From positions 1,024,001 to 1,088,000 of the forward strand of contig CAXXOA010000001.1 in assembly GCA_963666275.2 (NCBI GenBank): a stretch of 64,000 nt of DNA, in the 5' to 3' direction. The first letter of the stretch is position 1. Each line of letters begins with the position of its first letter. Position numbers: made by a program. This document shows, piece by piece, positions 15,001-18,000 of the stretch. The DNA comes from Oceanispirochaeta sp. Lineage in GTDB: Bacteria > Spirochaetota > Spirochaetia > DSM-2461.

Positions 15001-18000
15001 TCCTGATGCATTTTGTGGCTGTAAAAGTCTGGGACAAATCTGTCCTCAGACTCATCGGCCGTTACCTGAGAGCCGGTATTCAGTTGGACAATGGAAAAGT
15101 GATTCCTACAGACATCGGCACACCCCAAGGCGGGCCCTTATCACCTCTGCTTTCCAATATCCTCCTTGATCGGTTGGATATGGAACTGGAGAGAAGAAAT
15201 GTGAGGTTCGCACGGTATGCAGATGACACTATCCTTTTAACGAAGAGATTGTGTGATGCTAGGAAGATCCTACAGGAAGTTTCAATATTTCTGGTAAGGA
15301 AATTGAAATTGGTAGTGAATCAGGAGAAAACGAAAGTTGCAAAGATAAGGGAGTGCAGTTTCCTGGGATTCACATTCAAGGGTAAGAAGATTCGCTGGAC
15401 AGAGTCGTCCTTTGAGGATTTTCGGTATCATCTGAAATATCTGACAAGGCGTTCCTGGGGTGTTTCCATGGAATACAGAATCGGGAAACTCAATGAGTAT
15501 ATCCGGGGCTGGATGAACTACTATGGGATCTCCCAATATTACAGCCCTATACAGAATCTTGATGACTGGCTCCTTAGGAGGATTCGCATGTGCTACTGGA
15601 AACAGTGGCGATATCCCAGAACGAAAGTCAGGAAACTGATGGAACTGGGAATTCCGAAAGATTTTGCCATTATCACCGGTGCCAGTAGTAAATCCTATTG
15701 GCATCTCTCCAAGTCTTACGCTACCAATGCAGCTATGTCCAATAAATGGCTGGAAGAGCAGGGATTGGTCAATATCAAATATCTGTGGTGTAAAGCCCAG
15801 GGATATATCTGATCAAATCAGGATTTCGTTTGCTCCATGGAGTGAACCGCCCCGTGCGGACCCGCATGCGGGGTGGTGTGGGGGCTGGAGGTTAAAAGCC
15901 TCCGGCTACCCGATTTATGTGGTCAATTATTTATTACCAAGTATTCAGTCAAACATAATTGATCATTCTTTTTTCCAATAACAAATAAGATATTTCTTTC
16001 AAAGTCATAATCTATAGAATATATTCTAGTTTCTTCTGAATTTATATTTTCCATTTTTGTTATACCTTCATCAATATTATAAAGCTTGAAATTGTTAATG
16101 CAAGAAGTTAGAAAACGATTATTACCAATATAAACAGCAGATGTTATAAGTTCTTTTTCATCTATTTTATACTTGTCTTCATTATTAGTTATATAATATT
16201 CATATCCTTTATACGGAATATTAATCCCATAAATGAAGTCTTTTGAATTTAATTTATGATCAAAAACCATTAATTCATTTTCTGTAATAACTGTCTCACA
16301 AAAGCCTGAAATTAATGAGTATTTTTGGATCTTTACTTTTTTTTCTCCAGGAAAATATCTCTCAATAAAAAAAGATGTATCAGTATCCCAGAAAATATTC
16401 CTAATGATTAAGAGTTCATCTTTACTTGTAATTAAAGCATCCAAATTTGAATCCAATCTATTCTCTTCAACTAAAGTAATTCCAGAGAACCAACCCGAAT
16501 GCCCTGAAATAAACAATAATGAATTATCCATGAAACTCATGCTAAAGATTGATAGTTCATCAGGAATAAGTGAGCTTATATTATTCCTTTCACCATTTTC
16601 ATCATAAAAATAGAGAGAATGCCCCATCGAAATATAAAAACCATTATTAGTTCCTGAAACAAGTAGTGGTAATCCTTCTCTATTGAAATAGAATTCATCA
16701 ATTTTCTGTAGTTCTAATGAATATAAATTTGTAAATATCAATATGACTAATAAATATGTAATTGCTTTTTTCATCATTAATTCCATTAAAAGTAAAACGT
16801 TGAAGGATTGATTAATTTTCCATTGATATGCGTTCTAAAATCTAAATGTGGATTGGTAGACATGCCAGTTGAGCCGATAGAACCAATTATCTGACCTTGT
16901 TCAACCCATTGCCCATTTTCAACTGAAACTGTTGATAGATGAGAATATTGTGATGAAACTTTAAAGAAGGGAACATCTTTATCATTAGGAAATTGCTTTG
17001 CATAATCAATAAATAAACTGTTACCATAGGCATCAGATAGAGAACTATCAAATCTTATATAACCAGAATGAGCCGCGTATACTGGATCACCAAGAGGACA
17101 ATCATAATCAATCCCACCATGCCATCGGTTGATTTCTTCTCCTTGATAAAACAGCTTACAAAACCCATAATTTTCCGTTACAATTGGATCATCAACAGGA
17201 ACAATAAAACCTAATTCTAACAAACAAGATGGTCTTGTAATTTCAACATAGTGCCTAACAGGGTCACTTGCCTCCAATTGCTCAAAAGAATTATCATACA
17301 TGTCTTTATAATGATCGCTTACATTCTCGTAACAAGCTTTTTTATTCTCCTTTGGAGCAGGAGCGGGTGGAGTTTCTTCCTTCGGAGCAGATTTCATTAT
17401 CGGCTTATCATCATCTTCTCCATCTAGCCATAAATCTTCATAGATTAATTCTATTCTTTCTACTGCGATACCATTTGCTCTAAAATCTAATGTGGGGCCA
17501 ATCCAACGGCAGGGTAAAGCACGAAAGAAATTCCAACGTTTTACTTCTTCACCGCTTTGATCCATTAAAATAACTGAACCGCTTCTCCTTTCTACTGGCT
17601 TGTCGGAATGAATTACATCATAGTACCAACGGTATAAATCATCACAAGTAGAAATACCTTTTTCGAGAATCAAATTTGGGAAACGAGTTCTTCCCTCAAA
17701 TCGATGAATTCCATACCCGCCTTCTTCCACTTCATAAACATATTTTTCTGATTCGAGACCTTCACAACGAGAAAATGTTGTTGTTATGACTCCATCCAGT
17801 TCTAATGCAAAACAATGTGGTAAATAAGAATCTGATCTATTCATTACTAATCTCCCCAAATAATGATTTCTTGTTTTACATTTAGTAATTTACGTCATTA
17901 ATATATATTGATTCTTTTAATGATTCTTGTCACTAGATAATATGAATTGTTTTTCTTACAAATAACCCATTTTCTTCGTAGCATAATCCTCCACCGGAGG

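Follow-up and report, generated by a model that had tools for sequence, protein, structure and literature searches.

In type VI secretion (T6SS), "evolved" Hcp proteins (Hcp-ET) carry a toxin on the tube protein Hcp, and the immunity gene follows downstream. Among other T6SS effectors, those of the Tae/Tai and Tge/Tgi pairs are wall enzymes that are injected into the periplasm and neutralized there by an exported binding protein, and phage tail lysins bear M23 domains on tail tips. For extracellular contractile injection systems (eCIS), the papers that we consulted describe two loading routes: cargo in the lumen, with N-terminal signals or DUF4157, and fusions to PAAR or spike proteins. Excerpts of two studies report eCIS toxins that act against bacteria, a peptidoglycan hydrolase among them (PMC8213781, PMC8894135). 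Our searches of open-access literature gave no description of tube-fused eCIS effectors, in line with the preliminary description of the locus studied here, which had placed tube fusions outside the described cargo routes.

The window that we analyzed is a stretch of 64,000 nucleotides from Oceanispirochaeta sp. (contig CAXXOA010000001.1, positions 1,024,001 to 1,088,000), and positions are given along it unless stated otherwise. It contains two adjacent genes, one for a tube domain joined to an M23 peptidase (g00860) and one for a protein with a signal-peptide-like N terminus (g00859) (Table 1). We consider it probable that they represent a polymorphic antibacterial effector-immunity pair borne on a specialized eCIS tube-adaptor subunit.

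Table 1. Features of the g00860/g00859 cassette and its surroundings in the window
Feature	Position	Strand	Evidence
g00860, 352-aa fusion: Cis5-like tube domain, disordered linker, M23 peptidase	16786..17844	-	ORF, Pfam, NCBIfam, AF2, Foldseek
Tube domain, aa 12-138, gp19/TIGR02241 type, nearer Cis5 than Cis1	17431..17811	-	PF06841, TIGR02241, CIS5_fam vs CIS1_fam
Linker, ~aa 139-205, acidic and proline rich, predicted disordered	17230..17430	-	AF2 pLDDT
M23 peptidoglycan-peptidase region, ~aa 206-352	16789..17229	-	PF01551, PDB matches, AF2, Foldseek
g00859, 287-aa ORFan, all-beta, signal-peptide-like N terminus; predicted inhibitor/immunity protein of the M23 domain	15923..16786	-	ORF, complex prediction
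Signal-peptide-like N terminus of g00859, aa 1-23 (MELMMKK plus hydrophobic stretch)	16718..16786	-	Translation; helix 2-21 in AF2 model
Noncoding cassette leader, from crossover in R' of preceding attC to start codon	17845..18134	-	Sequence
R'' end of the cassette's attC, TTATGTGG on the + strand, directly past the stop codon, cut off from the other part of the attC by intron copy 1	15915..15922	-	Intron 3' junctions
Rest of the cassette's attC: imperfect hairpin ending in R' core GGATAAC (+ strand)	13854..14004	-	Fold, sequence
Group II intron copy 1, in bottom strand of the cassette's attC, antisense to cassette genes; RT/maturase 14490-15812	14005..15914	+	Rfam RF02001; RVT_1 and GIIM; TIGR04416, 386.5 bits
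Group II intron copy 2, in attC upstream of cassette	18234..20264	+	Rfam RF02001 and RF01998
Integron integrase, divergent from cassette array	39487..40710	+	TIGR02249, 389.4 bits (cutoff 265); Phage_integrase and SAM_4

Domain architecture of the fusion and its partner

The open reading frame of g00860 (16786..17859, minus strand; 357 aa) starts with TTG; the 352-aa form, as annotated previously, is likelier because its ATG at 17844 lies 7 to 8 nt downstream of a GGGGAG motif. Profile searches with the 357-aa form reproduced both halves of the architecture that had been reported, namely, a Phage_T4_gp19 tube domain (PF06841; E = 8.4e-28; aa 17 to 143; model positions 5 to 133 of 134) joined to a C-terminal Peptidase_M23 domain (PF01551; E = 5.6e-22; aa 247 to 352; 78.2 bits against a cutoff of 28.7). 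The gp19 fold is present and complete, with 93.9 bits in TIGR02241 (cutoff, 62.4). In the AF2 model of g00860, pLDDT falls below 50 for residues 117 to 158 and 160 to 207 and ranges from 79 to 96 over the M23 region, and Foldseek searches with the M23 model retrieved LytM, lysostaphin, and ShyA.

The type of tube domain needed refinement. g00860 scored 57.5 bits with the NCBIfam model CIS5_fam versus 28.8 with CIS1_fam, both under the equivalog cutoffs; the same leaning was seen in the resident plain tube g01940 (64.5 versus 36.9 bits) and in four Treponema-type fusions (68.6 to 85.4 versus 39.1 to 51.3 bits), and the other resident tube leans to CIS1 (52.9 versus 42.6 bits for CIS5). The Cis5 equivalog cutoff (NF053770) is 260, which g00860 and the plain resident tube both miss; what remains is a higher score for CIS5 than for CIS1, and we call g00860 Cis5-like rather than a member of Cis5. 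The best tube match of the fusion in the PDB is Pvc5 (1.5e-10; Pvc1, 6e-6), in a set of sequence matches that includes both kinds of chain and is by itself ambiguous between adaptor and main tube. Gene order points the same way for the closest plain relatives: the g01940-type plain tube is directly followed by a Cis7-like gene in this genome, as are the plain tubes of 23 of 31 plain-tube loci (among 46 loci). g00860 itself does not adjoin cis7 in the eCIS operon, being located in an integron 1.16 Mb away. According to the available text of PMC8894136, the first two tube layers of the particle are Cis5 and Cis7. The "specialized tube subunit" of the preliminary description is therefore upheld as to its fold (PF06841, TIGR02241) and amended as to its type: CIS5_fam outscores CIS1_fam, Pvc5 is the best match, and the module is, as far as such comparisons tell, a Cis5-like tube adaptor and not a main-tube subunit.

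The start of g00859 and the stop of g00860 share 1 nt. The translation of g00860 has neither a signal peptide nor any other visible export signal at its N terminus. g00859 matched no family in Pfam or NCBIfam and has, by eye, a signal-peptide-like N terminus, in agreement with its earlier description as a secreted 287-aa protein of no family. A word search of 5.8 billion proteins found no homologue, and a HMMER scan of 1.84 billion representatives yielded only five weak partial matches (E = 1e-7 to 5e-4). Its AF2 single-sequence model was unusable (pLDDT, 39.7). In the ESM Atlas, the nearest clusters were unnamed, DUF4221, or WD40-like, at a recognition of 2064, below the 2300 mark; as a lead only, these neighbors hint at a beta-propeller-like fold.

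The complex of the M23 region (aa 195 to 352) and g00859 (aa 24 to 287) was predicted in three runs alongside three controls. ipSAE reached 0.88 in all three runs, with the best control at 0.02; the ipSAE mark that we used is passed by 116 of 157 solved complexes and by 2 of 215 mismatched pairs and is a rough guide here, as our own alignment was used. Contacts agreed in at least 93%, with a partner pLDDT of at least 86. The predicted interface comprises D246 and residues 248 to 252, 304 to 306, 325 to 333 (with H333), and D335, i.e., the metal site and the groove. Since g00859 has no homologue, memory of a solved complex is an unlikely source of the high score. The prediction supports the binding of g00859 across the active-site cleft of the M23 domain.

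The fusion family and its relation to eCIS

The previous census of tube-domain fusions was reproduced exactly: among 68 proteins, 9 (including g00860) carry M23, 34 carry NlpC/P60, 1 carries PF21814, and 24 are without a second Pfam family. They fall into at least eight C-terminal classes, namely, M23, NlpC/P60, DUF6883, and several Cys/His or SLT-like classes, whose labels ("papain-like" and "SLT-like") were given by eye; Pfam searches of the unnamed classes at E values of up to 1 gave nothing above the cutoff. In one Treponema-relative genome, three paralogues are 95.4 to 97.8% identical at the nucleotide level over 458 to 477 nt, which covers the tube module only, and then diverge. Five tube-module "heads" are found in the same array, with different enzymes behind identical tube modules and with an orphan copy of the NlpC/P60-type partner. 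The 13 fusion loci make up 78 locus pairs, which the close kinship of several loci keeps from being independent. Homologous downstream proteins occur in 6 pairs, in all of which the toxin domains are at least 68% identical, and no pair combines a homologous partner with an unrelated toxin. A signal-peptide-like start was discerned by eye in 11 of the 13 partners. The gene that follows the DUF6883 fusion encodes a 66-aa DUF4926 protein without such a segment, and a broken fusion shows a weak HNH-like match (E = 0.035, below the cutoff). Taken as sequences, the fusions form a polymorphic toxin family: the tube module is constant, and toxin type and downstream partner co-vary.

The prominence of M23 and NlpC/P60 in this census, which leaves nearly all recognizable C-terminal domains as wall hydrolases, also fits an enzyme for penetration, i.e., a tail-associated hydrolase that opens the target peptidoglycan for passage of the tube without killing, kept quiet by g00859 as an inhibitor or chaperone. 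The position would be apt: Cis5 lies at the leading end of the tube, as stated in excerpts of PMC8894136, and the neighboring tube-fold protein Cis7 already bears an outward C-terminal peptidoglycan-binding LysM domain (PMC8894135, in the part available). A penetration aid, however, needs neither co-varying exported partners nor orphan partner genes, nor several different enzymes behind identical tube modules in one array, and the DUF6883 fusion with its small signal-less partner, together with the HNH-like match, suggests enzymes that do not act on the wall. We therefore regard this explanation as unlikely.

In the present genome, the three gp19 matches are g00860 and two tubes in a locus at 2.19 to 2.22 Mb of the contig (C1), which also encodes two sheaths, CIS_tube with LysM, a GPD spike, gp25, Baseplate_J, an AAA ATPase, eCIS_core/DUF4157, and PAAR; no Pvc16-type cap gene (Pvc16_N) was detected, and the same search matched in no control genome either. 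Fusion and complete-looking eCIS loci occur together in this genome (G000) and in two others (G347 and G258), and Treponema lecithinolyticum ATCC 700332 has a locus with plain tube and Cis7 (L064) and another with fusion and partner (L071). The fusion gene lies outside the eCIS loci in all genomes examined, and three of the seven fusion-bearing assemblies (G403, G565, and G611) gave no match to sheath, plain tube, or CIS_tube/Cis7. The last two observations would suit a toxin independent of eCIS, whose tube fold serves to carry it as an oligomerizing module or to signal a different route of release (lysis or vesicles), the eCIS link being ancestral only. The divergence of the tube domain in this genome speaks for the same explanation. 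By BLASTP, it is identical to the resident eCIS tube 1.16 Mb away (L004:11657-12157) at 87 of 145 positions (E = 3e-61), which bears out the 60% identity given earlier, and the corresponding values in G347 and G258 are 75 to 76%. In a maximum-likelihood tree from which the distant tube types of G032, G036, G400, G208, and G750 had been removed beforehand, the module sits on a long branch outside the clade of its own family's tubes, a common clade not being rejected by the AU test (P = 0.15). With 60% identity and a long branch, it may misfit the resident machine.

Against independence from eCIS stand the complete-looking loci of the three genomes named above, the lack of an alternative export signal at the N terminus of g00860, and the conservation of the module, which has 57 invariant columns over eight fusions and keeps the full length of the Pfam model, as expected if ring contacts are preserved. 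The three assemblies without an eCIS match, and a fourth with only part of the system (G589), consist of 20 to 110 contigs each, and in G347 the eCIS is on a separate 165-kb contig, so that an unbinned replicon is possible where eCIS matches are lacking. A toxin that does without eCIS appears distinctly improbable.

The integron cassette and the condition of its genes

The cassettes of the array are co-oriented on the minus strand and extend from 39.3 to 8.5 kb, leftwards from the integrase, with a GACATAAC core adjoining the first cassette. The cassette has an attC-like hairpin with the cores RYATAAC and GTTATGY, and the crossover in the R' core of the attC preceding our cassette is ACATAA|C (18129 to 18135, plus strand). 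On the cassette strand, the cores of the cassette's own attC read CCACATAA|C and GTTATCC, one base off the consensus (R'', RYYYAAC; R', GTTRRRY). The DNA fold of the attC remainder has an energy of -22.2 kcal/mol (z = -2.9), matched by 1 of 200 shuffles. A group IIC-attC intron interrupts this attC. In six attC sites, every one of the six 3' junctions of introns reads G|TTA(T/G). A pattern search for intron-free attC sites gave one match, the level of chance. The earlier assignment of the two genes to one integron cassette is confirmed by the integrase score, the attC cores, and the hairpin, and the sequence marks the pair as one genuine cassette. In calling it "swappable, integron-borne ammunition," the preliminary description was right about the integron here; the general statement has this one cassette as its basis. 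Among five Treponema-family genomes checked, a true integron integrase is found only in G347, about 440 kb from the fusion array. A prophage tail tube with a lysin domain, considered earlier as an origin, is rejected: neither the cassette nor its neighbors contain capsid, terminase, or other phage genes.

The M23 domain retains H242-GGI-D246 (HxxxD) and H302 in the motif YSHLS, which would be metal-site or catalytic residues, as in LytM and lysostaphin. The HxH motif had been noted to read H-L-D, and it does so: H333-L-D335 places Asp at the usual third zinc-binding His (codon GAT, 16840 to 16842), giving PHLDF where known M23 peptidases in the PDB alignment have PHLHF. D335 is the only D among the 49 M23 sequences in which a regular expression found the motif, which makes catalysis uncertain. 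Asp335 could still bind zinc.

A marine metagenome contig (run X4) is about 97% identical over 15941 to 17655. Among the differences listed, 16 are synonymous and 8 nonsynonymous in g00859 (pN/pS, ~0.12; binomial P = 5e-7), and 10 are synonymous and 6 nonsynonymous in the C-terminal half of g00860 (pN/pS, ~0.15; P = 3e-4); H302, H333, and D335 are unchanged among them. These counts indicate that both genes are under purifying selection and that the unusual H-L-D is kept in the metagenome copy. Predicted cleft binding, toxin/partner co-variation, and purifying selection each strengthen the earlier view of the two genes as effector and immunity protein.

The same evidence weighs on the idea of a silent relic, meaning a captured cassette whose expression has ceased and whose enzyme was inactivated by the His-to-Asp change. 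The uniqueness of H-L-D would agree with it, as would the location of the cassette, which is separated from attI by ~21 kb with several antisense introns. A scan of 15700 to 18300 for promoters and terminators gave 12 promoter-like sites against 11.9 expected; the lack of promoters above chance would agree with a relic too, although at this level the scan is uninformative. Yet both frames are intact, synonymous changes are in excess relative to an independent copy that keeps D335, and the predicted interface is intact; moreover, introns of the lineage of copy 2 carry an outward promoter (Pout) that expresses the next cassette, according to excerpts of PMC3001079. A silent relic is, in our judgment, very unlikely. 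Hardly credible is an autolysin, checked by g00859, that lets eCIS particles or phage progeny out of the producing cell: cell lysis does release eCIS particles, as reported in the available text of PMC8213781, and an M23 domain could contribute, but the fusion lacks a signal peptide or holin partner for reaching the wall, the cassette is devoid of phage genes, polymorphism with cognate partners is unexpected of a housekeeping lysis enzyme, and none of the other 37 genomes in the same family, of which 7 have eCIS tubes, contains g00860.

Proposed mechanism and comparison with known systems

We thus return to the eCIS-borne effector-immunity pair as the preferred explanation. From the computed domain make-up, cassette, polymorphism, co-variation, predicted cleft binding, and purifying selection, we infer that g00860 is incorporated into and delivered by the eCIS, that its target compartment is the periplasm, and that the M23 domain is enzymatically active despite H-L-D. 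g00860 would be an "evolved" copy of Cis5, with an M23 endopeptidase tethered C-terminally through the flexible linker. One or more copies would enter the single Cis5 ring between Cis7, the tube initiator, and the main tube, either alongside its subunits or in their place; six folded domains of 16 to 20 kDa on one ring are too many for the lumen, whose width is given as 3.6 nm in excerpts of PMC8894135. On contraction of the sheath, that end of the tube would pierce a diderm target's outer membrane, and the M23 domain would then cut peptidoglycan in the target's periplasm. g00859, exported to the producer's periplasm, would bind across the M23 cleft and so shield both the producer and its kin against incoming particles. 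The C-terminal toxin and the downstream immunity gene would be exchanged together, the pair having been captured here as one integron cassette.

The broader proposal is that Cis5 fusions are a distinct, as yet undescribed cargo route of eCIS, which places a fixed small number of covalently attached toxins in the first ring behind the spike; in Treponema, recombination at the constant tube module would exchange the toxin-immunity modules, and here an integron would have captured and moved them. We give it about even chances. It bears on two questions, how eCIS particles are loaded and whether eCIS are used against bacteria. If it is true, spirochete eCIS are antibacterial weapons that can be rearmed by a single two-gene cassette, and Cis5 is an engineering site for defined cargo loading. 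The fusion family offers testable material in the form of paired toxins and inhibitors, present in cultured Treponema isolates. g00859 is an inhibitor candidate without relatives that nevertheless has a confident predicted interface over the M23 active site, and the integron is seen carrying putative ammunition for a secretion machine whose genes lie elsewhere in the genome.

Each of the nearest known systems shares part of this arrangement. The wall enzymes and exported inhibitors of Tae/Tai and Tge/Tgi resemble the pair in their logic; g00859, however, has no sequence relation to any protein, and the carrier here is a tube-adaptor domain. Cis7/Afp7 with its C-terminal LysM likewise combines the tube fold with a peptidoglycan-related domain that reaches out at the level of the baseplate, as described in the available parts of PMC8894136 and PMC8894135, which shows that this end of the tube has room for an extension. 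The LysM domain is a conserved, structural element for binding and anchoring, whereas the extension of g00860 is a variable enzyme with an immunity gene. The lumen cargo of eCIS (DUF4157 proteins, those with N-terminal signals, Cgo1 and Cgo2 of AlgoCIS, and PVC effectors) comprises toxins too, and the resident locus has its own eCIS_core/DUF4157 protein; such cargo consists of free, noncovalently held proteins whose genes close the eCIS operon, in contrast to g00860, which is fused and encoded 1.16 Mb away. PAAR and spike toxins of eCIS and T6SS share with g00860 the covalent fusion of an effector to a part of the needle (PMC8651086, in the excerpt available), but their carrier is the tip, in one copy, and the tube adaptor could provide up to six copies per particle. 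A toxin in the tube-adaptor ring would be a third loading route of eCIS, with defined copy number and position, and the counterpart of evolved Hcp. It would differ from Hcp-ET in its carrier, which is not Hcp but the gp19/Cis5-type domain of an eCIS-like system and resembles a single-ring adaptor rather than a repeating tube unit, and in that the toxins are mostly wall hydrolases and the pair is an integron cassette.

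The tube-peptidase fusion and its resident eCIS relatives

Both Pfam matches from which the preliminary description had read a tube domain and a peptidase in one protein were recovered: g00860 has a complete Phage_T4_gp19 tube domain in its N-terminal part (E = 8.4e-28) and a Peptidase_M23 domain in its C-terminal part (E = 5.6e-22). An alternative start, a TTG 15 nt upstream of the ATG, would give 357 aa. In an AlphaFold model made from a 60-row alignment, the M23 part has pLDDT values of 79 to 96, the tube part is of moderate confidence, and the ~70 residues joining them are disordered (pLDDT <50); LytM, lysostaphin, and ShyA were among the M23 structures that Foldseek matched to this model.

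The genome (G000) has three gp19 matches, the two others lying in an eCIS (extracellular contractile injection system) locus 1.16 Mb from the fusion, along with two sheath genes, a CIS_tube+LysM (Cis7-like) gene, a GPD spike, gp25, Baseplate_J, an AAA ATPase, an eCIS_core/DUF4157 protein, and PAAR/spike genes. Pfam detected no Pvc16-type cap in this locus, nor did it match one in control genomes. Two divergently transcribed spike/PAAR genes also belong to the locus (L004/L005; G000:C1:2190001-2230000), as do a radical-SAM/4Fe-4S gene, genes with FHA and VWA domains, and genes for a pentapeptide-repeat protein and a DUF1257 protein. The tube domain of the fusion shares 60% identity (87/145) with g01940, whose gene immediately precedes the Cis7-like gene, and 26% with the second resident tube, the same values as reported previously. 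Scored with the NCBIfam models of the inner tube adaptor (CIS5_fam) and the inner tube (CIS1_fam), the fusion obtained 57.5 and 28.8 bits, g01940 64.5 and 36.9 bits, four Treponema-type fusions 68.6 to 85.4 and 39.1 to 51.3 bits, and the second resident tube 42.6 and 52.9 bits. Since all of these scores are far under the equivalog cut-offs, we call the domain, judging by sequence, Cis5-like rather than a member of the family; the proposed tube-protein fusion stands as to its gp19 domain, which appears adaptor-like and not main-tube. Synteny agrees with this assignment: a ~146-aa g01940-type tube is encoded directly 5' of a conserved 206-aa gene (a PF19266 match in assembly G258) in 23 of 31 plain-tube loci, which lie among 46 loci from a scan of species-representative genomes. 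Distant gp19-type homologs at L023 (G400:C18) and L035 (G208:C3) have open frames of ~171 to 192 aa and a signal-peptide-like hydrophobic N terminus, odd for a tube protein.

Coordinates of the fusion, its integron array, and the array of assembly G347 (window coordinates unless a locus is named)
Feature	Coordinates	Strand	Remarks
g00860 (fusion)	16786-17844	-	352 aa; ATG preceded by GGGGAG ribosome-binding site
g00859 (partner)	15923-16786	-	287 aa; start codon shares one base with g00860 stop
Integron integrase	39487-40710	+	TIGR02249, 389.4 bits (cut-off, 265)
Cassette array	8553-39314		
Tube-fusion cassette, crossovers	18129-18135 and 13854-13860		ACATAA/C to GGATAA/C
Copies of one group II intron family	13950-37560	+	Inside attC sites of the single integron array
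IS element in fourth intron copy	24341-25288		rve-type transposase, 24341-25246; ALIL frameshift pseudoknot (RF01497), 25172-25288
Truncated RT ORF of fourth intron copy	25587-26216		
AAA_14/DUF4143 ATPase cassette	11387-12598	-	
Fic protein cassette	12824-13789	-	
DUF4365 + 234-aa ORF cassette	20274-22032	-	
Two large ORFan cassettes	26319-27893 and 37560-39314	-	
DUF6119 + 206-aa ORF cassette	30051-32465	-	
Second peptide deformylase cassette	34810-35373	-	
G347 array, L006 (G347:C1:262001-282000)	6593-16936		Five tube-module heads; three full fusions, each with partner
L006, truncated head with Cis7-like fragment	9124-9988		
L006, bare head	16874-16936		
L006, duplicated flanking genes	8506-8983 and 16407-16923		

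Toxin domains, partner genes, and the predicted complex

A homolog search limited by length reproduced the earlier census of 68 tube-domain proteins of 225 to 478 aa, with M23 as the second domain in 9 (including g00860), NlpC/P60 in 34, DUF6883 in 1, and no second Pfam family in 24. The C-terminal parts comprise at least five further sequence classes (labeled by eye), several with Cys/His motifs and one SLT-like, and one linker segment recurs in more than one class. In the window's own family, a gp19 search recovered tubes in 8 of 38 genomes and the fusion in G000 only; a class sample of 401 genomes contained 31 with tubes, and fusions in G000, G258, and G347; of 401 genomes sampled from the G347 family, 25 had gp19-family matches, with fusions in G347, G258, G403, G565, G589, and G611.

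The three fusions of G347 lie within 9 kb and are 95.4 to 97.8% identical over their first 458 to 477 nt, a stretch that opens ~20 to 40 nt before the start and closes where the tube module does, beyond which they are unrelated (one without Pfam family, one M23, one NlpC/P60). As far as sequence tells, this arrangement, with its truncated and bare heads and duplicated flanking genes, is the layout of polymorphic toxin loci and looks like toxin switching through recombination at the constant module. In G589 (L013 and L014, contigs C17 and C26), a 5.8-kb contig carries two tube fusions, one behind the other, and a fusion on another contig is broken by an in-frame TGA, its C-terminal part being weakly HNH-like (E = 0.035).

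For each complete fusion examined, the next gene is small and begins within a few bases. Thirteen fusion loci gave 78 locus pairs, which are not independent, several loci being close kin. Partners were homologous in 6 of these, and in all 6 the toxin domains were homologous too (68 to 88% identity); related partners with unrelated toxins occurred in none of the 78. In seven pairs only the toxins are alike, and weakly so, owing to the linker they share or to the M23 of G000, itself distant (27 to 30% identity). By eye, 11 of 13 partners have an exported-protein-like start; the 66-aa DUF4926 protein downstream of the DUF6883 fusion in the G589 tandem has none. The G347 array holds an extra orphan copy of its NlpC/P60-type partner. 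The partner in the window, g00859, has no relation to the partner (~161 aa) that accompanies the Treponema M23 fusions, in keeping with how far apart the two M23 domains are.

No Pfam or NCBIfam family matched g00859, and no relative was recovered among 5.8 billion clustered proteins or, with HMMER, among 1.84 billion representatives. We read its start (MELMMKK, then a hydrophobic stretch) by eye as a putative signal peptide; g00860 itself has no export signal. All three runs of a complex prediction with M23 aa 195 to 352 (52-row alignment) and g00859 aa 24 to 287 (no alignment) scored 0.88, three controls reaching 0.02 at most; of solved complexes, 116 of 157 came up to the score mark, as did 2 of 215 mismatched pairs, counts that hold only roughly because our own alignment was supplied. 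At least 93% of contacts were common to the runs, and partner pLDDT was at least 86. The confident predicted interface comprises D246 (the Asp of HxxxD), residues 248 to 252, 304 to 306 (beside H302), and 325 to 333 including H333, and D335, which would place the partner where an inhibitor is expected, over the metal site and the substrate groove. The model supports binding of g00859 to the M23 domain of g00860. The PDB matches included no solved structure in which a g00859-like protein binds an M23 domain, and g00859 has no relatives, so that the score is unlikely to echo a known complex.

The integron cassette and selection on its genes

The pair had been called an integron cassette, rightly so: a TIGR02249 integrase, core junctions, and an attC hairpin that folds better than 199 of 200 shuffles accompany a cassette that, minus intron 1, has ~2.37 kb with two genes and one attC. 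All low-GC genes left of the integrase are on the strand opposite to it. Seven intron copies lie among the cassettes, six whole and one cut by the IS element, with RT ORFs of 440 or 426 aa, most copies being 97 to 100% identical to one another. The 3' junctions of all six intact introns read ...CCCGAT/TTA(T or G), and upstream of each 5' junction is an imperfect hairpin starting RYATAAC; these sequences place the introns in the bottom strand of attC, between the G and TTA of the R'' core. Almost all attC sites in the array contain an intron antisense to the cassettes, and the intron position agrees with what the abstract of PMC3001079 says of group IIC-attC introns. An outward promoter is reported there for introns of this lineage, and the cassette may be expressed from it; a promoter scan around the cassette detected none above chance. 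Several other cassettes look defense- or conflict-related. G000 stands apart in carrying the pair as an integron cassette: only one of five Treponema-family genomes tested, G347, has a true integron integrase, ~440 kb from its fusion array. The description of these toxins as integron-borne applies to the G000 cassette.

The H-L-D reading of the g00860 HxH motif was confirmed, and it is unique among the 49 M23 family-search sequences in which the pattern found the motif; the remaining fusion M23 domains have H-L-H (8 of 8). Three runs of the organism's own sample, possibly the assembly's source, cover the stretch without difference. An independent marine metagenome run (X4) holds a cassette copy ~97% identical (53 differences over 15941-17655) with a more diverged leader (31 differences and 5 indels in 414 nt; window 15941-18134); the cassette is present in at least one other natural population. 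Among the 40 differences listed, apparently complete up to 17349 and with 43 more outside the list, g00859 has 16 synonymous and 8 nonsynonymous changes (pN/pS, ~0.12; binomial p = 5e-7) and the C-terminal half of g00860 has 10 and 6 (~0.15; p = 3e-4), in a test for synonymous excess that ignores transition bias. This excess argues that g00859 and g00860, the latter counted in its C-terminal half, are under purifying selection. H302, H333, and D335 are unchanged among the differences listed, that at 16939 being silent in the H302 codon, and since the X4 copy keeps the Asp, it is neither a sequencing slip nor recent decay. The M23 domain is a putative enzyme, in which Asp335 might support zinc binding and catalysis.

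Proposed delivery and relation to known systems

By computation, a Cis5-like module is tethered to an M23 enzyme, a putatively exported and co-transcribed partner is predicted to cap the M23 active site, and the family behaves as if the tube module served delivery, the C-terminal domain were a polymorphic toxin, and the partner its cognate immunity protein. We infer that the fusion would take a place in the resident eCIS's Cis5 ring, perhaps beside plain Cis5 subunits, pass through the outer membrane of the target at the front of the tube, and attack the target peptidoglycan with its M23 domain. As the fusion has no export signal, an exported inhibitor would make sense only against an enzyme from outside. 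According to passages of PMC8894135, the AlgoCIS lumen is ~3.6 nm wide and the C-terminal LysM domain of Cis7, the neighboring tube-fold protein, extends outwards at baseplate level, a precedent for an extension at this tube end.

The tube fold might instead be the carrier of a toxin independent of the eCIS. Speaking against eCIS delivery, G403, G565, and G611 have fusions and no plain tube, sheath, or CIS_tube match in their multi-contig assemblies, and the G000 tube module, on a long branch, is more distant from its resident tube (60% identity) than those of G347 and G258 are from theirs (75 to 76%). G589, also multi-contig, has one sheath and one plain tube only. A missing replicon is a possible explanation for the assemblies without eCIS matches; the G347 eCIS is on a separate 165-kb contig. 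The fusion might also be a penetration lysin, a release autolysin, or a silent relic, the co-varying exported partners, multi-toxin arrays, and purifying selection opposing the last two most strongly among all these rivals.

Returning to eCIS delivery, no eCIS tube protein with a fused toxin is mentioned in the portions consulted of the open-access eCIS/T6SS/PAAR main texts: Geller 2021 (PMC8213781), Chen 2019 (PMC6899500), a PAAR survey (PMC8651086), an evolved-core T6SS preprint, a 2024 machine-learning toxin paper (PMC11297309), a 2025 metagenome survey (PMC12210884), PMC12352652, and two 2022 structure papers (PMC8894136 and PMC8894135). Within these texts, the earlier placement of the fusion outside the described eCIS routes holds. 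We rate the fusion as a putative specialized effector borne by one of the structural subunits from which a contractile injection system is built, for which the nearest known systems are the Hcp-ET proteins of T6SS, PAAR/spike-fused eCIS toxins, and lumen cargo.
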